Shown: in pieces, positions 25,919 to 46,430 of the stretch
Position numbering within the stretch: the stretch's first letter is position 1
Layout of the letters: each line of letters begins with the position of its first letter
Origin: Escherichia coli
GTDB taxonomy: Bacteria > Pseudomonadota > Gammaproteobacteria > Enterobacterales > Enterobacteriaceae
Assembly: GCF_036507355.1 (NCBI RefSeq)
Contig: NZ_AP027877.1
Length of the DNA stretch: 64,000 nt
Strand: one strand, 5' to 3'
Program-made: the position numbers and the translations under genes
The notes under the pieces: model-generated
Databases searched by the model: none
What the model was told of the DNA's origin: nothing
The model's input: the letters and a program-made list of their open reading frames with translations, nothing else

Positions 25919-26644
25919 ATGCACTTGTCTACACATCCGACCAGCTACCCAACACGCTATCAGGAGATAGCCGCAAAACTTGAGCAGGAGCTTCGTCAAC
26001 ACTACCGCTGCGGCGACTATCTTCCCGCCGAGCAGCAGCTGGCGGCGCGCTTTGAGGTAAACCGCCACACCCTGCGCCGCGCCATCGACCAACTGGTGGA
26101 AAAAGGCTGGGTACAGCGCCGTCAGGGCGTCGGCGTGCTGGTGCTGATGCGCCCGTTCGATTACCCGCTCAACGCCCAGGCGCGTTTTAGCCAGAATCTG
26201 CTGGATCAGGGCAGCCATCCCACCAGCGAAAAACTGCTGTCGGTGCTGCGCCCGGCGTCTGGTCACGTCGCTGACGCGCTGGGGATAACCGAGGGGGAGA
26301 ACGTCATCCACCTGCGCACCCTGCGCCGGGTCAACGGCGTCGCGCTCTGTTTAATCGACCACTACTTTGCGGACCTCACCCTCTGGCCGACGCTGCAACG
26401 CTTCGACAGCGGTTCGCTGCACGATTTTCTGCGCGAGCAAACGGGAATTGCGCTGCGCCGCAGCCAGACGCGGATCAGCGCCCGCCGCGCCCAAGCCAAA
26501 GAGTGCCAGCGCCTTGAAATCCCGAATATGTCGCCGCTGCTGTGCGTGCGCACCCTTAACCACCGTGACGGTGAAAGCAGCCCGGCGGAGTATTCCGTCA
26601 GCCTGACGCGCGCCGACATGATTGAATTCACTATGGAGCACTGA
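25919..26644 (+). CDS. phnF: GntR-family repressor PhnF
   Basis: 241 aa from MHLSTHPTSYP; HTH plus UTRA domain. Confidence 0.92.
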   Translation: MHLSTHPTSYPTRYQEIAAKLEQELRQHYRCGDYLPAEQQLAARFEVNRHTLRRAIDQLVEKGWVQRRQGVGVLVLMRPFDYPLNAQARFSQNLLDQGSHPTSEKLLSVLRPASGHVADALGITEGENVIHLRTLRRVNGVALCLIDHYFADLTLWPTLQRFDSGSLHDFLREQTGIALRRSQTRISARRAQAKECQRLEIPNMSPLLCVRTLNHRDGESSPAEYSVSLTRADMIEFTMEH

Positions 26645-27097
26645 ATGCACGCAGATACCGCGACCCGCCAGCACTGGATGTCCGTGCTGGCGCACAGCCA
26701 ACCGACTGAGCTGGCAGCCCGCCTGAACGCGCTGAACATCACCGCCGACTATGAAGTGATCCGCACCGCCGAAACTGGTCTGGTGCAGATTCAGGCGCGG
26801 ATGGGCGGCACCGGCGAACGCTTTTTTGCCGGCGACGCCACGCTCACCCGCGCCGCCGTACGCCTGACTGACGGCACGCTCGGCTACAGCTGGGTGCTGG
26901 GGCGCGACAAACAGCACGCCGAACGCTGCGCGCTGATTGACGCGCTGATGCAGCAATCTCGCCACTTTCAAAACTTATCAGAAACTCTTATTGCCCCGCT
27001 GGACGCTGACCGTATGGCACGCATTGCCGCACGCCAGGCCGAAGTGAACGCCAGCCGGGTCGACTTCTTTACGATGGTTCGCGGAGACAACGCATGA
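26645..27097 (+). CDS. phnG: C-P lyase core complex subunit PhnG
   Basis: 150 aa; operon position. Confidence 0.93.
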
Positions 27098-27678
27098 CCC
27101 TGGAAACCGCTTTTATGCTTCCCGTGCAGGATGCCCAGCACAGTTTTCGTCGCCTGTTAAAGGCCATGAGCGAGCCGGGCGTGATTGTCGCCCTGCATCA
27201 GCTCAAACGCGGCTGGCAGCCGCTGAATATCGCCACCACCAGCGTGCTGCTGACGCTGGCTGATAACGACACGCCGGTGTGGCTTGCCGCGCCATTAAGT
27301 AACGATATCGTCAGCCAGAGCCTGCGTTTTCATACCAACGCGCCGCTGGTCAATCAACCGGAACAGGCGACCTTCGCGGTGACGGATGAGACGATTTCCA
27401 GCGAACAGCTCAACGCCCTTTCCACCGGCACCGCCGTTGCGCCAGAAGCGGGCGCGACGCTGATTTTACAGGTCGCCAGCCTGAGCGGCGGGCGCATGTT
27501 GCGCCTCACCGGTGCGGGTATTGCCGAAGAACGAATGATCGCTCCGCAGCTGCCGGAGTGCATTTTGCACGAACTCACCGAGCGCCCGCACCCGTTCCCG
27601 CTCGGCATCGACCTGATCCTGACCTGCGGCGAGCGCCTGCTGGCTGTTCCGCGAACCACTCATGTGGAGGTGTGCTGA
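27094..27678 (+). CDS. phnH: C-P lyase core complex subunit PhnH
   Basis: 194 aa; 4-bp overlap with phnG. Confidence 0.93.
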
Positions 27679-28742
27679 TGTACGTTGCCGTGAAAGGGGG
27701 CGAGAAGGCGATCGACGCCGCCCACGCCCTGCAAGAGAGCCGACGCCGGGGCGATACCGATTTGCCCGAACTGAGCGTCGCCCAGATTGAACAGCAGCTT
27801 AACCTCGCGGTAGATCGCGTGATGACCGAAGGCGGCATTGCCGACCGCGAACTGGCGGCGCTGGCGCTGAAACAGGCCAGCGGCGATAACGTCGAAGCGA
27901 TTTTTCTGCTGCGCGCCTACCGCACCACGCTGGCGAAGCTGGCGGTGAGCGAACCGCTCGACACCACCGGGATGCGTCTCGAACGGCGTATCTCCGCTGT
28001 TTATAAAGATATTCCCGGCGGCCAACTGCTTGGCCCAACCTACGACTACACCCATCGCCTGCTCGATTTCACCCTGCTGGCAAACGGCGAAGCGCCAACG
28101 CTGACCACCGCCGACAGCGAACAACAGCCGTCGCCGCACGTTTTCAGCCTGCTTGCGCGTCAGGGGCTGGCGAAGTTTGAAGAGGATAGCGGCGCACAGC
28201 CGGATGACATCACCCGCACGCCGCCGGTTTACCCCTGCTCACGTTCTTCCCGTTTGCAGCAGTTGATGCGCGGCGACGAAGGCTATTTGCTGGCGCTGGC
28301 CTACTCCACCCAACGCGGTTACGGGCGCAATCACCCGTTCGCGGGTGAAATCCGCAGTGGTTACATCGACGTGTCGATTGTGCCGGAAGAGCTGGGATTT
28401 GCGGTAAACGTCGGCGAACTGCTGATGACCGAGTGTGAAATGGTCAACGGTTTTATCGATCCGCCGGATGAACCACCGCATTTTACACGCGGCTACGGGC
28501 TGGTGTTCGGCATGAGCGAGCGCAAAGCGATGGCAATGGCGCTAGTCGATCGTGCGTTGCAGGCCCCGGAGTACGGCGAGCACGCGACAGGCCCGGCGCA
28601 GGATGAAGAGTTCGTGCTGGCGCATGCCGACAACGTCGAAGCCGCAGGCTTTGTCTCGCACCTCAAACTCCCGCACTACGTCGATTTCCAGGCCGAACTG
28701 GAGCTACTCAAACGTCTGCAACAGGAGCAGAACCATGGCTAA
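27678..28742 (+). CDS. phnI: C-P lyase core complex subunit PhnI
   Basis: Start placed at [13 protein letters not shown] (354 aa); TGATG overlap with phnH. Confidence 0.93.
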   Translation: MYVAVKGGEKAIDAAHALQESRRRGDTDLPELSVAQIEQQLNLAVDRVMTEGGIADRELAALALKQASGDNVEAIFLLRAYRTTLAKLAVSEPLDTTGMRLERRISAVYKDIPGGQLLGPTYDYTHRLLDFTLLANGEAPTLTTADSEQQPSPHVFSLLARQGLAKFEEDSGAQPDDITRTPPVYPCSRSSRLQQLMRGDEGYLLALAYSTQRGYGRNHPFAGEIRSGYIDVSIVPEELGFAVNVGELLMTECEMVNGFIDPPDEPPHFTRGYGLVFGMSERKAMAMALVDRALQAPEYGEHATGPAQDEEFVLAHADNVEAAGFVSHLKLPHYVDFQAELELLKRLQQEQNHG

Positions 28743-29580
28743 TCTGAGCGGCTACAACTTTGCCTACCTCGACGAGCAGACCAAACGCATGATCCGCCGC
28801 GCCATCTTAAAAGCGGTGGCGATCCCCGGTTATCAGGTGCCGTTTGGCGGGCGCGAGATGCCGATGCCGTACGGCTGGGGAACCGGCGGCATACAGCTTA
28901 CCGCCAGCGTGATTGGCGAAAGCGACGTACTGAAGGTGATTGACCAGGGAGCGGATGACACCACCAACGCCGTGTCGATTCGCAACTTCTTCAAGCGCGT
29001 GACCGGGGTAAACACCACGGAACGTACGGACGATGCGACGGTTATCCAGACGCGTCACCGCATCCCCGAAACGCCGCTGACCGAAGATCAGATCATTATT
29101 TTCCAGGTGCCGATCCCCGAACCGCTGCGCTTTATCGAGCCGCGCGAAACGGAAACCCGCACCATGCACGCGCTGGAGGAGTACGGCGTGATGCAGGTGA
29201 AACTGTATGAAGATATCGCCCGCTTCGGTCATATCGCCACCACCTACGCCTATCCGGTGAAGGTGAACGGGCGCTACGTGATGGACCCGTCGCCGATCCC
29301 GAAATTCGATAACCCGAAAATGGACATGATGCCTGCCCTGCAGCTGTTCGGCGCGGGGCGCGAAAAGCGCATCTATGCGGTGCCACCGTTTACCCGCGTT
29401 GAAAGTCTCGATTTCGAGGATCACCCGTTCACCGTTCAGCAGTGGGATGAGCCATGCGCCATCTGCGGATCGACCCACAGCTATCTCGATGAAGTGGTGC
29501 TGGATGACGCCGGAAACCGCATGTTTGTCTGCTCCGATACCGATTATTGCCGCCAACAGAGCGAGGCAAAAAGCCAATGA
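28735..29580 (+). CDS. phnJ: C-P lyase PhnJ (radical SAM-like, four-Cys motif)
   Basis: Start at MANLSGYNFAYLDEQTKR (281 aa); C-terminal CxxCxxxxC...C cysteines. Confidence 0.93.
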   Translation: MANLSGYNFAYLDEQTKRMIRRAILKAVAIPGYQVPFGGREMPMPYGWGTGGIQLTASVIGESDVLKVIDQGADDTTNAVSIRNFFKRVTGVNTTERTDDATVIQTRHRIPETPLTEDQIIIFQVPIPEPLRFIEPRETETRTMHALEEYGVMQVKLYEDIARFGHIATTYAYPVKVNGRYVMDPSPIPKFDNPKMDMMPALQLFGAGREKRIYAVPPFTRVESLDFEDHPFTVQQWDEPCAICGSTHSYLDEVVLDDAGNRMFVCSDTDYCRQQSEAKSQ

Positions 29581-30335
29581 ATCAACCGTTACTTTCGGTC
29601 AATAACCTGACCCACCTTTACGCGCCGGGCAAAGGCTTTAGCGATGTCTCTTTTGATTTATGGCCGGGGGAAGTGCTGGGCATTGTCGGGGAGTCCGGCT
29701 CCGGGAAGACCACGCTGCTGAAATCAATCTCCGCGCGCCTGACGCCGCAGCAGGGGGAAATTCACTACGAGAACCGTTCGCTGTATGCAATGAGCGAGGC
29801 CGACCGCCGTCGCCTGCTGCGCACCGAATGGGGCGTGGTGCATCAGCATCCGCTCGACGGCCTGCGCCGCCAGGTCTCAGCAGGCGGCAACATCGGCGAG
29901 CGGCTGATGGCGACCGGGGCGCGTCATTACGGCGATATTCGCGCCACCGCGCAGAAGTGGCTGGAAGAGGTGGAAATTCCCGCCAACCGGATCGACGACC
30001 TGCCGACCACCTTTTCCGGCGGCATGCAGCAACGTTTGCAGATTGCCCGCAACCTGGTGACGCATCCGAAGCTGGTATTTATGGACGAGCCAACCGGCGG
30101 GCTGGATGTGTCGGTGCAGGCCCGCCTGCTCGACCTGCTGCGCGGCCTGGTGGTGGAGCTGAACCTGGCGGTGGTTATTGTCACCCATGATTTAGGCGTC
30201 GCCCGCCTGCTGGCGGACCGTTTGCTGGTGATGAAGCAGGGGCAAGTGGTGGAGAGTGGGTTAACCGACCGCGTGCTCGACGACCCGCATCATCCGTATA
30301 CACAGCTGCTGGTGTCATCGGTTTTGCAGAATTGA
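29577..30335 (+). CDS. phnK: C-P lyase accessory ATPase PhnK (ABC-type)
   Basis: Start at [11 protein letters not shown] (252 aa); Walker [10 protein letters not shown]. Confidence 0.93.
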
Positions 30336-30338
30336 GCC

Positions 30339-30428
30339 GGTGCCGGATGCGGCGTAAACGCCTTATCCTGCCTACAAATGCGCTCCCCGTAGGTCGGATA
30401 AGACGCGTCAGCGTCGCATCCGACACCC
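30339..30428. repeat. REP pair (BIME) inside the phn operon, between phnK and phnL
   Basis: gccggatgcggcgtaaacgccttatcctgcctaca...gtaggtcggataagacgcgtcagcgtcgcatccgac. Confidence 0.85.
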
Positions 30429-30445
30429 GAACCACGAGGCGAAAA

Positions 30446-31126
30446 ATGATTAACGTACAAAACGTCAGTAAAACCTTCATCCTGCACCAGCAAAACGGCG
30501 TGCGCCTGCCCGTCCTCAACCGCGCCTCGCTCACCGTCAACGCGGGCGAATGCGTGGTGCTCCACGGCCATTCCGGCAGCGGAAAATCAACCCTGCTACG
30601 CTCGCTGTACGCCAACTATCTGCCCGACGAAGGGCAAATCCAGATCAAACACGGTGACGAATGGGTCGATCTGGTCACCGCGCCAGCGCGCAAAGTGGTG
30701 GAGATCCGCAAAACCACCGTTGGCTGGGTGAGCCAGTTTCTGCGCGTCATCCCGCGCATTTCGGCGCTGGAAGTGGTGATGCAGCCGCTACTCGATACCG
30801 GCGTACCACGTGAAGCCTGCGCCGCTAAAGCCGCGCGTCTTCTCACCCGCCTGAACGTGCCGGAACGCCTGTGGCACCTGGCTCCATCGACCTTCTCCGG
30901 CGGCGAACAGCAGCGCGTCAACATCGCCCGCGGCTTTATCGTCGACTACCCCATTCTGCTGCTCGACGAACCTACCGCCTCGCTGGACGCCAAAAACAGC
31001 GCCGCGGTGGTGGAACTGATTCACGAAGCCAAAGCCCGTGGCGCAGCCATTGTCGGCATCTTCCATGACGAAGCCGTACGTAATGACGTTGCCGACCGCC
31101 TGCACCCAATGGGAGCCTCTTCATGA
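30446..31126 (+). CDS. phnL: C-P lyase accessory ATPase PhnL (ABC-type)
   Basis: Start at [11 protein letters not shown] (226 aa); Walker [10 protein letters not shown]. Confidence 0.93.
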
Positions 31127-32259
31127 TTATCAATAACGTCAAATTGGTGCTGGAAAACGAAGTGGTACACGGTTCACTGGAGGTGCAGGACGGCGAAATC
31201 CGCGCCTTTGCCGAAAGCCAGAGCCGCCTGCCGGAGGCGATGGACGGCGAAGGCGGCTGGCTGCTGCCGGGGCTGATTGAGCTGCATACCGATAATCTGG
31301 ATAAATTCTTCACCCCGCGCCCGAAAGTTGACTGGCCTGCCCACTCGGCGATGAGCAGCCACGACGCGCTGATGGTGGCGAGCGGCATCACCACCGTACT
31401 GGATGCCGTGGCAATTGGCGACGTGCGCGACGGCGGCGATCGGCTGGAGAATCTTGAGAAGATGATCAACGCCATCGAAGAGACGCAGAAACGCGGCGTC
31501 AACCGCGCCGAGCACCGTCTACACCTGCGCTGCGAACTGCCGCATCACACCACGCTGCCGCTGTTTGAAAAACTGGTGCAGCGCGAGCCGGTGACGCTGG
31601 TGTCGCTGATGGACCACTCGCCGGGCCAGCGCCAGTTCGCCAATCGCGAGAAGTATCGCGAATATTATCAGGGTAAATACTCGCTCACTGATGCGCAGAT
31701 GCAGCAGTACGAAGAAGAGCAACTGGCGCTCGCCGCACGCTGGTCGCAGCCGAATCGCGAATCCATCGCCGCCCTGTGCCGCGCGCGACACATTGCGCTT
31801 GCCAGCCACGATGACGCCACCCACGCCCACGTTGCCGAATCCCACCAGCTTGGCAGCGTGATCGCCGAATTTCCCACCACGTTCGAAGCGGCAGAAGCCT
31901 CGCGCAAGCATGGCATGAACGTGTTGATGGGCGCGCCGAATATCGTGCGCGGCGGTTCGCACTCCGGCAACGTGGCGGCCAGTGAACTGGCACAGCTTGG
32001 CCTGCTGGATATCCTCTCTTCCGACTACTACCCCGCCAGCCTGCTGGATGCGGCGTTCCGCGTGGCCGATGACCAGAGCAACCGCTTTACGCTGCCGCAG
32101 GCGGTGAAGCTGGTGACTAAAAATCCGGCGCAGGCGCTTAATCTCCAGGATCGCGGGGTGATTGGCGAGGGCAAACGCGCCGACCTGGTGCTGGCGCATC
32201 GCAAGGGCAATCATATTCACATCGACCACGTCTGGCGTCAGGGGAAAAGGGTGTTCTGA
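31123..32259 (+). CDS. phnM: PhnM, amidohydrolase-family ribosyl-triphosphonate diphosphohydrolase
   Basis: 378 aa; 4-bp overlap with phnL. Confidence 0.93.
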
Positions 32260-32816
32260 TGATGGGAAAGCTAATCTGGTTGATGGGGCCGTCCGGCTCC
32301 GGGAAAGACAGCCTGCTGGCGGAACTCCGCCTGCGGGAACAGGCGCAGTTGCTGGTGGCGCATCGCTATATCACGCGCGACGCCAGCGCCGGAAGTGAAA
32401 ACCATATCGCCCTGAGCGAGCAGGAGTTTTTTGCCCGTGCAGGTCAGCAACTCTTCGCGTTAAGCTGGCATGCTAACGGCTACTATTACGGCGTCGGGCT
32501 GGAAATTGATCTCTGGCTGCACGCCGGATTCGACGTGCTGGTCAACGGCTCACGCGCCCATCTGCCGCAGGCGCGGGCACGCTATGCATCGGCGCTGCTG
32601 CCCATCTGCTTACAGGTGTCGCCAGAGATCCTGCGCCAGCGCCTGGAAAACCGTGGTCGTGAAAACGCCAGTGAAATTAACGCCCGGCTGGCGCGCGCCG
32701 CCCGCTATACTCCTCAGGATTGCCATACGCTCAATAATGACGGCAGCCTGCGCCAGTCGGTCGACACACTGCTGACGCTGATCCATCAGAAGGAGAAACA
32801 CCATGCCTGCTTGTGA
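32259..32816 (+). CDS. phnN: Ribose 1,5-bisphosphate phosphokinase PhnN
   Basis: 185 aa; P-loop GPSGSGKDS. Confidence 0.93.
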
Positions 32817-33237
32817 GCTTCGCCCGGCCACACAGTACGACACCGACGCGGTTTACGCGTTGATTTGTGAGCTAAAACAGGCGGAGTTTGACCATCACGC
32901 GTTTCGCGTGGGCTTTAACGCCAACCTGCGTGACCCAAACATGCGCTACCATCTGGCGCTGCTGGATGGCGAAGTTGTCGGTATGATCGGCCTGCATTTG
33001 CAGTTTCATCTGCATCATATCAACTGGATTGGCGAAATTCAGGAACTGGTGGTGATGTCGCAGGCGCGCGGCCTGAACGTCGGTAGCAAGTTGCTGGCGT
33101 GGGCAGAAGAAGAAGCCCGCCAGGCCGGGGCCGAAATGACCGAGCTTTCCACTAACGTGAAGCGCCACGACGCGCACCGTTTCTATCTGCGCGAAGGCTA
33201 CGAGCAGAGTCACTTCCGCTTCACCAAGGTGCTGTAA
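32803..33237 (+). CDS. phnO: Aminoalkylphosphonate N-acetyltransferase PhnO (GNAT)
   Basis: 144 aa; 14-bp overlap with phnN. Confidence 0.93.
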
Positions 33238-33238
33238 C

Positions 33239-33997
33239 ATGAGCCTGACCCTCACGCTCACCGGCTCCGGCGGCGCACAGGGCGTTCCGGCATGGGGCTG
33301 CGAGTGCGCGGCCTGCGCCAGAGCGCGGCGCTCGCCGCACTATCGCCGCCAGCCATGCAGCGGCGTAGTGAAGTTTAACGAGGCGATCACCCTGATCGAC
33401 GCCGGGCGGCACGATCTCGCCGATCGCTGGTCGCCAGGATCGTTCCAGCAGTTTTTACTGACGCACTACCATATGGATCACGTCCAGGGGCTATTCCCGC
33501 TGCGCTGGGGCGTGGGCGATCCGATCCCGGTCTACGGCCCGCCGGATGAACAGGGCTGCGACGATCTGTTTAAACATCCGGGCCTGCTTGATTTCAGCCA
33601 CACGGTGGAACCGTTTGTGGTGTTTGATTTGCAGGGGTTACAGGTCACGCCCCTGCCGCTCAACCACTCAAAACTGACCTTCGGTTATCTGCTGGAAACG
33701 GCACACAGCCGGGTGGCGTGGCTGTCTGACACCGCAGGCTTGCCGGAAAAAACGCTGAAATTTTTACGCAATAATCAGCCGCAGGTAATGGTGATTGATT
33801 GCAGCCACCCGCCGCGCGAGGATGCGCCACGTAATCACTGTGATTTAAACACCGTGCTGGCGCTGAATGAAGTTATCCGCTCGCCGCGGGTGATTCTGAC
33901 CCATATCAGCCACCAGTTTGATACGTGGCTGATGGAGAATGCGCTGCCGCCGGGTTTTGAGGCGGGGTTTGATGGGATGGAGATTGGGGTGGCGTGA
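33239..33997 (+). CDS. phnP: Phosphoribosyl cyclic phosphodiesterase PhnP (metallo-beta-lactamase fold)
   Basis: 252 aa; HYHMDH metal-binding motif. Confidence 0.93.
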
Positions 33998-34033
33998 TGA
34001 GTGTGCGCGCTGGGCCCCTCACCCTAGCCTACC

Positions 34034-34363
34034 TCACCGCCCATACTCATCTTCCATTCTCCGCTCTTCATCCTCCAGTTGCCGACGCTCCTGATCAAGC
34101 TGGCGCTGGCGATCGTCCAGCTGCCTGCGGCGATCTTCAAACTGGCGGCGGCGGTCGTCATATTGTCTGCGCCGATCGTCGCTCACTTCACGCTGCCAGC
34201 CGTCGTCGCGCGAATCGTCATAGTCTCGCCCACGGTCAGGGTTATAAGCGTCATTAATCGCCTGCTGAATATTGCCAATGGTGTCGTCGATAATATCGGC
34301 CTGGGCCGGTACGGTGGTCAGCGTGAGCAGGGTGAATAAAAGAAATAGCGGAAAGCGTTTCAT
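34034..34363 (-). CDS. yjdP: Secreted low-complexity protein YjdP
   Basis: 109 aa; signal peptide MKRFPLFLLFTLLTLTTVPAQA followed by charged DDRRRQ / EDRRRQ / DDRQRQ repeats. Confidence 0.8.
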   Translation of the reverse strand: MKRFPLFLLFTLLTLTTVPAQADIIDDTIGNIQQAINDAYNPDRGRDYDDSRDDGWQREVSDDRRRQYDDRRRQFEDRRRQLDDRQRQLDQERRQLEDEERRMEDEYGR

Positions 34364-34431
34364 TAGCCAACCTCAAAAAGAAACTCTATCCACATTAGTC
34401 ATTACTCATCCATGCAAGTAGTGGATGAATC

Positions 34432-43499: not shown

Positions 43500-45647
43500 A
43501 TGAAAAAAGTCGTCACGGTTTGCCCCTATTGCGCATCAGGTTGCAAAATCAACCTGGTCGTCGATAACGGCAAAATCGTCCGGGCGGAGGCAGCGCAGGG
43601 GAAAACCAACCAGGGTACCCTGTGTCTGAAGGGTTATTATGGCTGGGATTTCATTAACGATACCCAGATCCTGACCCCGCGCCTGAAAACCCCCATGATC
43701 CGTCGCCAGCGTGGCGGCAAACTCGAACCTGTTTCCTGGGATGAGGCACTGAATTACGTTGCCGAGCGCCTGAGCGCCATCAAAGAGAAGTACGGTCCGG
43801 ATGCCATCCAGACGACCGGCTCCTCGCGTGGTACGGGTAACGAAACCAACTATGTAATGCAAAAATTTGCGCGCGCCGTTATTGGTACCAATAACGTTGA
43901 CTGCTGCGCTCGTGTCTGACACGGCCCATCGGTTGCAGGTCTGCACCAATCGGTCGGTAATGGCGCAATGAGCAATGCTATTAACGAAATTGATAATACA
44001 GATTTAGTGTTCGTTTTCGGGTACAACCCGGCGGATTCCCACCCAATCGTAGCGAATCACGTAATTAACGCTAAACGTAACGGGGCGAAAATTATCGTCT
44101 GCGATCCGCGCAAAATTGAAACCGCGCGCATTGCTGACATGCACATTGCACTGAAAAACGGCTCGAACATCGCGCTGTTGAATGCGATGGGCCATGTCAT
44201 TATTGAAGAAAATCTGTACGACAAAGCGTTCGTCGCTTCACGTACAGAAGGCTTTGAAGAGTATCGTAAAATCGTTGAAGGCTACACGCCGGAGTCGGTT
44301 GAAGATATCACCGGCGTCAGCGCCAGTGAGATTCGTCAGGCGGCGCGGATGTATGCCCAGGCGAAAAGCGCCGCCATCCTGTGGGGCATGGGTGTAACCC
44401 AGTTCTACCAGGGCGTGGAAACCGTGCGTTCTCTGACCAGCCTCGCGATGCTGACCGGTAACCTCGGTAAGCCGCATGCGGGTGTAAACCCGGTTCGTGG
44501 TCAGAACAACGTGCAGGGTGCCTGCGATATGGGCGCGCTGCCGGATACGTATCCGGGATACCAGTACGTAAAAGATCCGGCTAACCGCGAGAAATTCGCC
44601 AAAGCCTGGGGCGTGGAAAGCCTGCCTGCTCATACCGGTTATCGCATCAGCGAGCTGCCGCACCGTGCAGCGCATGGCGAAGTGCGTGCCGCGTACATTA
44701 TGGGCGAAGATCCGCTGCAAACTGACGCGGAGCTGTCGGCAGTACGTAAAGCCTTTGAAGATCTGGAACTGGTTATCGTTCAGGACATCTTTATGACCAA
44801 AACCGCGTCGGCGGCGGATGTTATTTTACCGTCAACGTCGTGGGGCGAGCATGAAGGCGTGTTTACTGCGGCTGACCGTGGCTTCCAGCGTTTCTTCAAA
44901 GCAGTTGAACCGAAATGGGATCTGAAAACGGACTGGCAAATCATCAGTGAAATCGCCACCCGTATGGGTTATCCGATGCACTACAACAACACCCAGGAGA
45001 TCTGGGATGAGTTGCGTCATCTGTGCCCGGATTTCTACGGTGCGACTTACGAGAAAATGGGCGAACTGGGCTTCATTCAGTGGCCTTGCCGCGATACTTC
45101 AGATGCCGATCAGGGGACTTCTTATCTGTTTAAAGAGAAGTTTGATACCCCGAACGGTCTGGCGCAGTTCTTCACCTGCGACTGGGTAGCGCCAATCGAC
45201 AAACTCACCGACGAGTACCCGATGGTACTGTCAACGGTGCGTGAAGTTGGTCACTACTCTTGCCGTTCGATGACCGGTAACTGTGCGGCACTGGCGGCGC
45301 TGGCTGATGAACCTGGCTACGCACAAATCAATACCGAAGACGCCAAACGTCTGGGTATTGAAGATGAGGCATTGGTTTGGGTGCACTCGCGTAAAGGCAA
45401 AATTATCACCCGTGCGCAGGTCAGCGATCGTCCGAACAAAGGGGCGATTTACATGACCTACCAGTGGTGGATTGGTGCCTGTAACGAGCTGGTTACCGAA
45501 AACTTAAGCCCGATTACGAAAACGCCGGAATACAAATACTGCGCCGTGCGCGTCGAGCCGATCGCCGATCAGCGCGCCGCCGAGCAGTACGTGATTGACG
45601 AGTACAACAAGTTGAAAACTCGCCTGCGCGAAGCGGCACTGGCGTAA
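43500..45647 (+). CDS. fdhF: Formate dehydrogenase H (selenocysteine-containing molybdoenzyme)
   Basis: Two ORF-track pieces (43500..43919 and 43968..45647) are a single frame joined through the in-frame TGA at 43917..43919 (codon 140); 715 aa; N-terminal Fe-S Cys cluster. Confidence 0.95.
43917..43965 (+). other. UGA selenocysteine codon plus SECIS stem-loop
   Basis: In-frame TGA followed by cacggcccatcggttgcaggtctgcaccaatcggtcgg, which can form the SelB-binding hairpin. Confidence 0.8.
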
Positions 45648-45660
45648 TACAGTCCTTTCT

Positions 45661-45689
45661 ACAGCCTCCTTTCGGAGGCTGTTTTTTTA
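45661..45689 (+). terminator. Rho-independent terminator of fdhF
   Basis: acagcctcc-tttc-ggaggctgt hairpin followed by T7. Confidence 0.85.
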
Positions 45690-45740
45690 TCCATTCGAAC
45701 TCTTTATACTGGTTACTCCCTACCCAATCGTATTATCAAA

Positions 45741-46430
45741 ATGAAAAAAATTATCGCATTGATGTTGTTTTTGACATTCTTTGCCCACGCCAACGACTCC
45801 GAGCCTGGCAGCCAGTATTTAAAGGCAGCAGAGGCCGGGGACCGACGCGCACAATATTTTCTTGCCGACAGCTGGTTTAGCTCCGGCGATTTGAGCAAAG
45901 CCGAATATTGGGCACAGAAAGCCGCCGACAGCGGTGATGCTGATGCCTGCGCGCTGTTGGCGCAGATCAAAATCACCAATCCGGTCAGTCTGGACTATCC
46001 ACAAGCAAAAGTTCTTGCAGAGAAAGCGGCGCAAGCGGGCAGTAAAGAAGGTGAAGTAACGCTGGCGCATATTCTGGTAAATACTCAAGCGGGTAAACCG
46101 GATTATCCAAAGGCGATTTCGCTGTTAGAAAACGCCTCGGAAGATCTGGAGAATGACTCCGCCGTCGATGCCCAAATGCTGCTTGGTTTGATTTACGCCA
46201 ACGGCGTGGGCATTAAGGCCGACGATGACAAGGCAACCTGGTATTTCAAACGCAGCTCTGCAATTTCCCGAACCGGTTATTCCGAGTACTGGGCGGGAAT
46301 GATGTTCTTAAACGGTGAAGAAGGTTTTATCGAGAAGAACAAGCAAAAGGCGCTGCACTGGTTGAACCTGAGCTGTATGGAAGGGTTTGATACCGGGTGT
46401 GAAGAGTTTGAAAAATTAACTAACGGTTAA
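45741..46430 (+). CDS. yjcO: Sel1/TPR-like repeat periplasmic protein YjcO
   Basis: 229 aa; signal peptide MKKIIALMLFLTFFAHA; repeated Sel1-like motifs. Confidence 0.85.
   Translation: MKKIIALMLFLTFFAHANDSEPGSQYLKAAEAGDRRAQYFLADSWFSSGDLSKAEYWAQKAADSGDADACALLAQIKITNPVSLDYPQAKVLAEKAAQAGSKEGEVTLAHILVNTQAGKPDYPKAISLLENASEDLENDSAVDAQMLLGLIYANGVGIKADDDKATWYFKRSSAISRTGYSEYWAGMMFLNGEEGFIEKNKQKALHWLNLSCMEGFDTGCEEFEKLTNG

Follow-up and report, generated by a model that had tools for sequence, protein, structure and literature searches.

What kind of protein is encoded by the short open reading frame at positions 34034..34363 (minus strand) of the window, i.e. the 64,000-nt stretch of Escherichia coli DNA analyzed here, and how is it controlled? 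The initial annotation named the gene yjdP and described its product as a secreted, disordered, low-complexity protein. Taken together, the evidence below leads us to a different picture, to which we assign a probability of roughly 70%: a conserved yjdP, encoding an exported rod-like helix protein and expressed from a promoter of its own with an RcsB-type box.

According to the open reading frame list and the translation, the gene runs from an ATG to a TGA and consists of 109 codons plus the stop, giving a product of 109 aa; a Shine-Dalgarno sequence (GAGG, 34371..34374, minus strand), read from the sequence, lies 7 nt 5' of the ATG. The product matches the family model NF041443 ("DDRRRQL repeat protein YjdP") over its full length, with residues 1-103 aligned to positions 1-101 of the 101-position profile, at an E-value of 6e-44 and 148.4 bits against a curated cut-off of 90. 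RefSeq carries the label "yjdP: DDRRRQL repeat protein YjdP" under the match in 5404/5426 complete E. coli genomes, and the name yjdP is thereby upheld. The precomputed annotation places Pfam PF28054 ("YjdP") on all relatives; in our local Pfam-A search nothing reached the gathering score, DUF7900 (E 0.037) coming closest. Only two residues, S16T and E49D, separate the protein from that of K-12 (98% identity). Alignments of 61 orthologues display the architecture found here as well, i.e. a signal peptide, an ADIIDDxIGNIQQAINDAY helix, an acidic linker and RRQL-type heptads, and the gene is convergent with phnP in the window, a criterion of our own outside the family model. The locus thus holds yjdP, a core enterobacterial gene, in intact form; 99.6% of complete E. 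coli genomes have the gene, and its conservation extends over about a dozen genera of Enterobacteriaceae. The gene, its name and its repeat motif are already known in RefSeq, NCBIfam and Pfam. Searches of yjdP with PADLOC and PHROGs gave nothing meaningful and hence no defence or phage link, while source names carried by some relatives ("Skp family chaperone", "RNase H-like nuclease" and "membrane protein involved in colicin uptake") were dismissed as coiled-coil noise.

A long hydrophobic open reading frame of 86 aa lies antisense to yjdP (34079-34339, plus strand, in the open reading frame list) and has the same codon boundaries, which raises the alternative that yjdP is spurious or that the real product, this protein or an RNA, comes from the opposite strand. 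We consider the chance of this negligible. Among the 61 orthologues, the entropy of codon positions 1/2/3 is 0.25/0.16/1.08 bits over residues 23-40 and 0.19/0.11/1.27 bits over the core heptads, i.e. variation is concentrated at sense third positions, which are antisense first positions; this pattern rules out the antisense frame as a real product. In addition, it is the sense frame that has the Shine-Dalgarno sequence, the signal peptide and the curated family match, and an Rfam search of 32000-37000 gave no match. yjdP codes for a protein and is subject to strong purifying selection.

The gene had also been described as sitting at the edge of the als deletion scar. The adjacency is real, as a remnant rpiB open reading frame of 105 aa (34432..34749, minus strand) was left at the als deletion; this 318-nt frame is labelled "RpiB/LacA/LacB family sugar-phosphate isomerase" in RefSeq. 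Positions 34031-34569 of the window align at 99% identity to K-12 yjdP together with the final 138 nt of rpiB, 34564-34633 match an internal piece of rpiB at 90%, and 34634-34777 have no match in K-12. The scar is nothing special to the window, since it occurs in 1569/5426 E. coli genomes, and with a catalogued gene next to a common als-less allele, the locus is ordinary as a genome-scan finding. The conserved neighbor of yjdP is phnP rather than als: in the window, phnP (33239..33997, plus strand, from the open reading frame list) is convergent with yjdP, with the stop codons 36 nt apart, and it is found downstream and convergent in 51/61 orthologue loci. A link to phosphonate metabolism through this neighbor was considered and rejected, as the two genes face each other and a conserved promoter of its own is inferred for yjdP.

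The N-terminus bears out the clear signal peptide of the initial annotation. Residues 1-22 (MKRFPLFLLFTLLTLTTVPAQA; 34298..34363, minus strand) show n-, h- and c-regions, namely MKR, a 14-residue hydrophobic core (FPLFLLFTLLTLTT) and VPAQA, with cleavage predicted after AQA and before the following Asp. Judged by the (-3,-1) rule only, the basic n-region, hydrophobic h-region and small residues at -3 and -1 are those of a Sec substrate of signal peptidase I; inspection of the sequence revealed neither a lipobox Cys nor a twin-Arg motif. Residue -1 is Ala in 61/61 orthologues and residue -3 in 59/61, and 55/61 have a signal peptide of 22 aa. By these features, the precursor would be exported by Sec and cut after AQA to give an 87-residue periplasmic product.

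The predicted mature protein falls into three parts. Residues 23-40 (DIIDDTIGNIQQAINDAY; 34244..34297, minus strand) appear to form an N-terminal amphipathic helix, as indicated by conservation (91% mean amino acid identity among the 61 orthologues), a hydrophobic moment of 0.52 and an AlphaFold2 (AF2) model in which they are helical at a pLDDT of only about 48-50. They are followed by an acidic linker, residues 41-53 (NPDRGRDYDDSRD; 34205..34243, minus strand), which is the least conserved, length-varying part of the YjdP family and the only stretch, of 13 residues, that falls below a pLDDT of 50. Six heptads, defined by their layout, Tandem Repeats Finder and conservation, then occupy residues 62-103 (34055..34180, minus strand), in the order DDRRRQY, DDRRRQF, EDRRRQL, DDRQRQL, DQERRQL and EDEERRM. 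Tandem Repeats Finder reports a period of 21 nt with 3.5 copies at 34108-34180, and between genera, of which about a dozen are represented, the core heptads agree in 95% of their residues, third codon positions being free to vary. Charged Arg/Asp/Gln/Glu repeats had been rightly noticed, although the unit is not the hexamer that was proposed; it comprises seven residues, the seventh of which is always hydrophobic (Y/F/L/L/L/M). Nor is the protein almost entirely repeats: these make up 42 of the 87 mature residues only, residues 23-61 comprising the conserved non-repeat helix and the linker.

The repeat DNA had further been suspected of being prone to length variation, and a comparison of repeat number across strains had been proposed. 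In this comparison the number turned out to be nearly fixed, with six hydrophobic positions at a spacing of seven residues, i.e. six heptads, in 59/61 species. Rare alleles that keep the frame encode 95, 102 or 123 aa; the 102-aa allele, one heptad shorter, was found in about 16-18 of 5405 E. coli complete-genome records (about 0.3%). The suspicion thus holds for rare in-frame alleles, not for a general proneness. The missing heptad differs between alleles, pointing to independent events, and the 102-aa allele (P0040) is recorded in 2561 blocks of a large assembly collection. The tract that does vary, in some E. coli, lies in the signal peptide. Comparison of the window with other alleles identified an imperfect 9-nt repeat in the hydrophobic core, TTCACCCTG CTCACGCTG, encoding FTL LTL (34319..34336, minus strand); in these strains the tract is now a perfect (TTCACGCTG)n of variable copy number, with 3-6 copies. 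Alleles of 339, 348, 357 and 366 nt (loci L072, L071, L001 and L002) were compared with the window DNA, and about 9/90 evenly sampled genomes have the expansion. The result is a natural allelic series of signal peptides, 22 to 34 residues in length, which could serve in export studies.

Such observations might be taken to mean that yjdP is a contingency-type locus, in which slippage in the repeats often changes the length between strains. Independent heptad losses, the 2561 blocks with the 102-aa allele and a true 9-nt repeat speak for it. We nevertheless regard it as very improbable, since the near-perfect, frame-shifting DNA repeats of a contingency locus were not found. The 21-nt units are only 33-81% identical in DNA, with 7-17 of the 21 bases in common; exact repeats reach at most 7-8 nt, and 7 nt at the 21-nt offset. 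Both the 21-nt and the 9-nt units are multiples of three, so that the frame is kept and no on/off switching by frameshift results, and the rarity of the 102-aa allele and the constancy of six heptads among species weigh in the same direction.

Is the repeat region disordered, as had been predicted? AF2 instead models a single long alpha-helix over residues 54-108 (34040..34204, minus strand), also indicated by the charge pattern. This helix of 55 residues (32-86 in mature numbering) would be about 8 nm long at 1.5 A per residue. The pLDDT is 86-98 over the last 47 residues (mature residues 41-87), a figure to be read with the caveat that AF2 commonly renders charged repeats as confident single helices. 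The charge order itself was compared with expectation. Opposite-charge pairs at i+3/i+4 number 36 against 21 expected and like-charge pairs 4 against 20 expected, giving a net stabilising score of 32 against 0.9 +/- 6.3, with 0/20,000 shuffles as good. The charge order of the repeats is thus non-random and suited to within-helix salt bridges. Disorder, as far as the model goes, is confined to the linker.

A competing explanation takes YjdP for an intrinsically disordered polyampholyte comparable to hydrophilins or to the acid-shock protein Asr, with repeats that matter by composition only and a non-specific periplasmic action as shield, chaperone or ion buffer. The composition fits: the mature protein contains 23% Asp, 23% Arg, 11.5% Gln and 9% Glu, is of low complexity, has a net charge of -8, and has a charged fraction of 0.55, rising to 0.67 in the tail. 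The linker is modelled as disordered, and yjdP is co-induced with the osmotic/desiccation genes osmB, osmY, osmC, yjbJ and ymdF. A function by composition alone would, however, tolerate shuffling and drift, whereas the core heptads are 95% identical, their charge order is non-random, the hydrophobic seventh residue is kept and the AF2 confidence is high; we therefore judge this explanation unlikely. Our best guess is that YjdP works through a rigid helix, in a structural or a binding capacity, rather than as a disordered shield, and it is this rigid charged helix that we offer as a structural hypothesis in place of disorder. As modelled, periplasmic YjdP would begin with a short amphipathic helix, which is conserved, continue through a flexible acidic linker and end in an approximately 8-nm rod of six heptads, in which the spacing of Asp/Glu and Arg would allow intra-helix salt bridges. 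The Tyr/Phe/Leu/Met stripe, recurring at each seventh residue, may provide a narrow seam for self-association or partner docking.

As for the control of the gene, an 18-nt motif (TTGAGATTCATCCACTAC; 34418..34435, minus strand) is located 54-58 nt before the ATG in 60/60 distinct upstream regions of orthologues, irrespective of the gene that precedes yjdP, and occurs once in the window against 0.03 expected. Within it lies a 14-mer (TGAGATTCATCCAC; 34421-34434, minus strand), the first three bases of which are the TGA of the rpiB remnant (34432-34434), and which resembles the RcsB box, with the consensus TN(G/A)GAN4TC(T/C)NA (PMC7913699). The core TNRGAN4TCYN is present in 60/60 orthologue upstream regions and the box fits the consensus at 13/14 positions, the exception being the last base, which all orthologues have as C instead of A. 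The 14-mer varies at six positions, all of which coincide with degenerate RcsB positions (hypergeometric estimate about 0.009); the core pattern alone, found 6 times in the window where 18 are expected, is not rare. A candidate -10 hexamer, TAATGT (34392..34397, minus strand; TAACGT in most genera), was inferred from the anchored alignment of the 60 upstream regions, where the T, A and final T have frequencies of 0.9, 0.8 and 0.8; a consensus promoter scan of the window did not call a yjdP promoter. With this hexamer, transcription would start near 34385, about 22 nt 5' of the ATG, and the box would span -49 to -36 and be centered near -42, to be compared with -50 to -36 for ytfK and -55 to -41 for yciG among listed RcsB sites (PMC7913699). 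Folding scans of the terminator and 5'-UTR in the window gave no structure better than shuffles.

Published transcript data agree with an active gene. With a LolCDE inhibitor, yjdP was up 9.5- and 10.6-fold, alongside osmB, bdm, wca, rcsA, ivy and spy, in a response that also includes sigma-S and Cpx genes (PMC5105897), so that the induction could be indirect. In DH10B, yjdP received 478-672 reads and the rpiB gene next to it 61-96, and imipenem changed it only 1.4-fold (PMC6286996 Table S2). yjdP is thus transcribed in E. coli K-12 and about 10-fold induced when lipoprotein sorting is blocked, and a lack of expression evidence, which the initial annotation had named as a ground for doubting the gene, is not what these two sources give. 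We did not find yjdP in the supplements of Rcs/iModulon papers, nor rcsB-mutant data for the gene, or protein-level detection, localisation or a phenotype of YjdP, in the searchable literature.

The conserved upstream site suggests control by the Rcs envelope-stress system. By conservation and co-expression, yjdP would be transcribed from its own promoter just 3' of the box near -42, and YjdP would be made within the Rcs, and possibly also the sigma-S, envelope-stress response. Alternatively, the motif is not an RcsB site and the induction is either indirect (RprA, sigma-S) or due to another regulator, e.g. CsiR, which we hold to be the less probable course. Many genes on the LolCDE-inhibitor list are sigma-S dependent, yjdP falls 3.5-fold when CsiR is overexpressed and contains a ChIP-seq peak for it, and the box has a non-consensus last base and a core pattern that is common by chance. 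The E. coli gene also has a C at -13 before TAATGT, a feature of many sigma-S promoters. Against this stand the fixed position and 60/60 conservation of the motif, the restriction of its substitutions to degenerate RcsB positions, and a box that abuts the -35 region as in known RcsB-activated promoters. The conserved RcsB-type box at -49 to -36 is the new lead of this analysis, and gives Rcs control of yjdP the form of a concrete regulatory hypothesis.

More speculatively, and with a rather low probability in our estimation, yjdP could be controlled directly by RcsB, and its product could act in the periplasm as an envelope-stress effector of a new kind, i.e. a self-associating, salt-bridged Asp/Arg rod of about 8 nm, comparable to the Lpp helix, with a docking N-terminal helix. 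If so, the rod would self-associate via its one-residue-wide Leu stripe and the invariant N-terminal helix would dock on an envelope partner; YjdP would then serve as a scaffold or spacer, or would bind cationic molecules upon outer-membrane damage.

Compared with known systems, the protein shares both the architecture and the phnP neighbor of the YjdP family (NF041443/PF28054), of which the window copy is an E. coli-type member. Its promoter region resembles those of osmC, ytfK and yciG, where the RcsB box adjoins the -35 region, as does the yjdP box with the inferred promoter; the osmC box reads TGAGATTTATCCTA and the yjdP 14-mer TGAGATTC(A/C)TCC(A/G)C, which differs in ending with C instead of A. 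Like Spy, CpxP and ZraP, YjdP is small, helical and exported (the latter two by prediction), and LolCDE inhibition raises yjdP together with spy and cpxP, but the protein has no match to their LTXXQ family. Braun's lipoprotein Lpp is a periplasmic heptad helix similar in length to the YjdP rod, from which YjdP differs by having neither lipobox nor peptidoglycan-linking Lys. Profile matches in the PDB were all coiled coils and marginal, the best being the repeats of streptococcal M protein (9mmx; M6) at E 0.0027, with no solved relative among these sequence matches, and Foldseek found no PDB match for a tandem AF2 model. In that model the linked helices pack together; as the covalent tandem construct is biased to a hairpin, self-association is weakly supported by it. 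With leucine zippers, YjdP shares a strict seven-residue period (21 nt/7 aa) and Leu at one core position. With Leu at d, its e positions are acidic and its g positions basic, as in the g-e' pairs of zippers. While d reads YFLLLM, the second core position, a, reads RRRQRE, i.e. Arg, Gln or Glu instead of the hydrophobic residues of a coiled coil, which disfavours a classical coiled coil. The charged single alpha-helix (SAH, ER/K-type) likewise has dense opposite-charge pairs at i+3/i+4, hardly any like-charge pairs and a long isolated helix, all of which recur in YjdP with the AF2 model. YjdP, in contrast, is bacterial and predicted to be periplasmic, uses Asp/Arg where SAH domains use Glu/Lys, and keeps one hydrophobic residue per heptad, a conserved Y/F/L/L/L/M stripe that is absent from SAH domains.

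The yjdP gene lies on the minus strand at 34034-34363, exactly the extent given in the initial annotation, with an ATG start, a TGA stop, 109 codons and a Shine-Dalgarno sequence (GAGG) 7 nt 5' of the ATG. The name YjdP was confirmed with the NCBIfam model NF041443 ("DDRRRQL repeat protein YjdP"), which matched end-to-end with a score of 148.4 bits, the curated cut-off being 90. Among the Pfam models, none in the copy searched directly scored above threshold for this protein; PF28054 ("YjdP") is precomputed on its relatives. Megablast found the gene, annotated as yjdP in each case, in 5404 out of 5426 complete E. coli genomes, and the protein differs from that of K-12 at two residues (S16T and E49D). 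From these matches, the annotation and the near-identity to K-12, the locus is therefore a known, named gene with no function assigned. Every feature tested for YjdP family membership was found, and we give a spurious reading frame a negligible probability. The product begins with MKR-FPLFLLFTLLTLTT-VPAQA, followed by DIIDD, in which the basic n-region, hydrophobic core and Ala-x-Ala cleavage motif of the signal peptide claimed earlier can all be read; the N-terminal sequence contains neither a lipobox nor a twin-arginine motif. Position -1 is Ala in 61/61 orthologues and position -3 in 59/61. The precursor would be exported by the Sec route and cleaved after AQA. The mature protein is highly charged, as had been noted, with 23% Asp, 23% Arg, 11.5% Gln and 9% Glu.

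Scanning a single genome for each species yielded 61 yjdP loci, distributed over Escherichia, Citrobacter, Raoultella, Klebsiella (grimontii group), Kosakonia, Pluralibacter, Atlantibacter, Pseudocitrobacter, Phytobacter, Kluyvera, Trabulsiella and several unnamed Enterobacteriaceae, and cluster look-ups extended the gene to Cronobacter, Buttiauxella and Entomohabitans. One assembly titled 'Chryseobacterium sp. 18061' (CACSKA010000007.1, locus L014) holds an Enterobacteriaceae-type yjdP-phnP-phnO locus and is probably mislabelled or contaminated. The family is narrow: when 1.84 billion representative proteins were searched exhaustively with HMMER, just 52 matched at E <= 0.001, and almost every one was a family member or a fragment. 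All members consist of four parts, i.e. the signal peptide, an amphipathic helix that hardly changes between members (D-I-I-D-D-A-I-G-N-I-Q-Q-A-I-N-D-A-Y), an acidic linker rich in Asp, Arg and Ser that varies in sequence and length, and a block of conserved heptads, RQ(Y)DDRRRQ(L/F)EDRRRQLDDRQRQLDQERRQLxDEERR(L/M). In a codon alignment of the 61 orthologues, the entropies at codon positions 1/2/3 were 0.19/0.11/1.27 bits in the core heptads, 0.25/0.16/1.08 bits in the N-terminal helix and 0.98/0.76/1.46 bits in the linker. The core heptad residues are 95% identical with third positions free to vary, so that the repeats are under strong purifying selection at the amino-acid level. A hydrophobic antisense ORF of 86 aa at 34079-34339 (+) was rejected as coding, since it shares its codon boundaries with yjdP, so that the variable sites fall on its first codon positions; it is a mirror image of the GAC/CGC-rich codons.

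Tandem Repeats Finder detected a 21-nt period at 34108-34180, and residues 62-103 form six heptads (DDRRRQY, DDRRRQF, EDRRRQL, DDRQRQL, DQERRQL and EDEERRM). Repeats are thus present as initially described, but each unit has seven residues rather than six, the seventh being hydrophobic, and the units account for 42 of 87 residues in the mature protein rather than for almost all of it. AlphaFold2, run on an alignment of 40 mature sequences, predicted a helix with low confidence for mature residues 3-18 (pLDDT about 48-50), no structure for the linker at residues 19-31 (pLDDT below 50) and a single continuous helix at 32-86, with pLDDT 86-98 over its last 47 residues. Within the long helix, opposite charges are paired at i+3/i+4 in 36 cases against 21 expected and like charges in 4 against 20, a net charge score reached by 0 out of 20,000 composition-preserving shuffles. 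The predicted disorder is therefore unsupported for the repeat region. Together with the residue-level conservation, this ordered charge pattern also speaks against YjdP being a disordered polyampholyte shield, which we regard as unlikely. A hydrophobic residue occupies every seventh position, six in succession, in 59/61 species, and with Leu placed at heptad position d, e is acidic (DDEDDE), g basic (RRRREE) and a polar (RRRQRE). As read from these residues, the layout is zipper-like with one hydrophobic core position only. In the mature protein, a flexible acidic tether would join a docking-type amphipathic helix to a salt-bridged rod of roughly 8 nm that carries a narrow hydrophobic seam.

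Length variation, suspected initially from the repetitive DNA, does occur, but it is rare and the heptad count is essentially fixed across species. Alleles of 102 aa have one heptad fewer, and the missing heptad differs among the cluster representatives P0040, P0025, P0028 and P0024; alleles of 95 aa and 123 aa (E. albertii) are also represented. With a 102-aa allele as query against 5405 records, 16 matched at >=99% and two more at 95-99%, while the remaining evenly sampled records all span at least 330 nt. Changes in heptad number are rare because the 21-nt units are imperfect, sharing 7-17 of 21 bases, with a longest exact repeat at the 21-nt offset of 7 nt. These imperfect in-frame units and the near-fixed copy number make it very improbable that yjdP is a slippage-prone contingency locus. 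Across the family, length varies in the linker rather than in the heptads. Some E. coli strains carry a signal-peptide core made of a perfect 9-nt repeat, (TTCACGCTG)n, encoding (FTL)n, in genes of 339 nt (L072:101-439), 348 nt (L071:101-448), 357 nt (L001:601-957) and 366 nt (L002:601-966). The expansion adds 1-4 Phe-Thr-Leu units, giving signal peptides of 25-34 residues instead of 22, and occurs in about 9 out of 90 evenly sampled complete genomes; the sequence at hand has an imperfect FTL-LTL tract at 34319-34336. This polymorphism is a modest new lead.

In K-12, alsK-alsE-alsC-alsA-alsB-alsR-rpiB sit between yjcS and yjdP. Here, the order along the window is phnP, yjdP, a 105-aa rpiB remnant (34432-34749, minus strand) and yjcS (34990-36987, plus strand). 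Positions 34031-34569 are collinear with yjdP and the final 138 nt of rpiB in K-12, 34564-34633 is an internal rpiB fragment (90% identity), and 34634-34777 (about 144 nt) is without K-12 match, the latter two forming the N-terminal part of the remnant ORF; the yjcS side resumes at 34778. From the K-12 gene order and these rpiB pieces, the als deletion scar proposed earlier is real, but 1569/5426 E. coli genomes have this arrangement contiguously, with query coverage of at least 80%, and carry the remnant under the annotation RpiB/LacA/LacB family protein. In EHEC, a different island occupies the slot (PMC10128022); E. coli O-antigen strain CDC#03-98 (L003:1-516) has an upstream gene annotated as a hybrid sensor kinase, matching that island. 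The yjcS-yjdP slot is a recurrent gene-swapping site. Across genera, the constant neighbor is phnP (here 33239-33997, plus strand), convergent in 51/61 loci, and the upstream gene varies, being rpiB in 11 loci, yjcS in five and a different gene in others. The coding end upstream of yjdP resembles a response-regulator/hybrid-kinase C-terminus in several loci of Citrobacter, Pluralibacter and Atlantibacter; such an end (...KPFT...LAQALR...) lies just upstream in L010, L011, L016, L018-L020, L036, L040 and L041. The yjdP-phnP spacer (33998-34033) is 36 nt long, compared with 41 nt in E. coli PapM-32-1 and 146 nt both in K-12 and in the majority of als-less E. coli. A G-quadruplex-hairpin element reported from this spacer (PMC5100583) coincides with the ~105 nt that K-12 has in addition. 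No terminator-like fold was seen 3' of yjdP in the window. Further along, a 1264-nt IS600 copy (IS3 family; 37952-39215), 99.9% identical to copies carried by plasmids of Shigella sonnei and E. coli, is inserted in mdtN relative to PapM-32-1, and mdtN is therefore probably inactivated. Over 26000-46000 (20 kb), the closest complete RefSeq E. coli genome is 97.9% identical. Taken with the IS600 copy, this distance points to a Shigella or an Escherichia lineage with little sampling as the probable origin of the window.

Because the upstream gene varies, sequence conserved upstream should belong to yjdP. The motif TTGAGATTCCTCCGCTAC occurs in all 60 distinct upstream regions, ending 54-58 nt 5' of the ATG; here it reads TTGAGATTCATCCACTAC (34418-34435, minus strand, 18 nt), with one occurrence against 0.03 expected. 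Its 14-mer fits the RcsB homodimer box TN(G/A)GAN4TC(T/C)NA (PMC7913699) at every position except the last (C for A). The core TNRGAN4TCYN is present in 60/60 regions, a pattern that by itself is not rare (6 window matches against 18 expected). The 14-mer varies among genera at six positions (3, 6, 8, 9, 12 and 13), each of which is degenerate in the consensus (hypergeometric P about 0.009, a rough value that ignores shared ancestry). The R and Y positions change only within R and Y, and T1, G4, A5, T10 and C11 are invariant. A conserved candidate -10 hexamer of the form T-A-x-x-x-T (TAATGT at 34392-34397, minus strand; TAACGT in most genera) lies about 20 nt downstream of the box; a consensus promoter scan of the window did not call a yjdP promoter. 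With this hexamer as -10, the box is predicted to span about -49 to -36, the same place as the listed RcsB sites of ytfK (-50 to -36) and yciG (-55 to -41). The upstream gene's stop codon overlaps the box, here the remnant's TGA at 34432-34434. In many genera other than E. coli (e.g. L032:3960-4003, L047 and L013), the leader contains the inverted repeat GCCAG...GAGACTGGC; its 3' arm lies directly against the Shine-Dalgarno sequence, and the repeat could form a translation-control or stabilizing hairpin.

Expression is supported by reported transcripts in K-12 and DH10B; literature searches for proteomic, localization and phenotype records of YjdP found none, and the support is at transcript level. 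In K-12, inhibition of LolCDE raised yjdP 9.5- and 10.6-fold. The list in which it appears consists mostly of envelope-stress genes, many being established targets of Rcs (osmB, bdm, wca/wza, rcsA, ivy and yjbEFGH), and also includes spy, cpxP and many sigma-S genes (PMC5105897). In DH10B, yjdP had 478 reads, up to 672 with imipenem, against 96 and 61 for the upstream rpiB (PMC6286996 Table S2), which fits a separate yjdP promoter. Overexpressing CsiR reduced yjdP 3.5-fold, and a ChIP-seq peak falls within the gene (PMC5217608). RcsB would activate transcription from the box abutting the -35 region, and direct control, taken alone, is somewhat favored; indirect or other regulation, e.g. by sigma-S or CsiR, would replace this step only and seems the less probable option.

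We take it as shown that yjdP belongs to a curated family, is under constraint, is transcribed and is induced by stress. For the full reading, in which a Sec-exported helix-tether-rod protein would be made under RcsB activation, we estimate a probability of roughly 0.7. The modest new leads are the RcsB-type box conserved upstream, the case against disorder and the polymorphic repeat in the signal peptide. Among known systems, YjdP resembles charged single alpha-helices in its charge pattern but differs in keeping a hydrophobic seam at every seventh residue, and it shares heptad periodicity with coiled coils but is hydrophobic at d alone instead of at both a and d. Spy and CpxP it resembles only as a small, stress-induced protein, predicted to be helical and exported.
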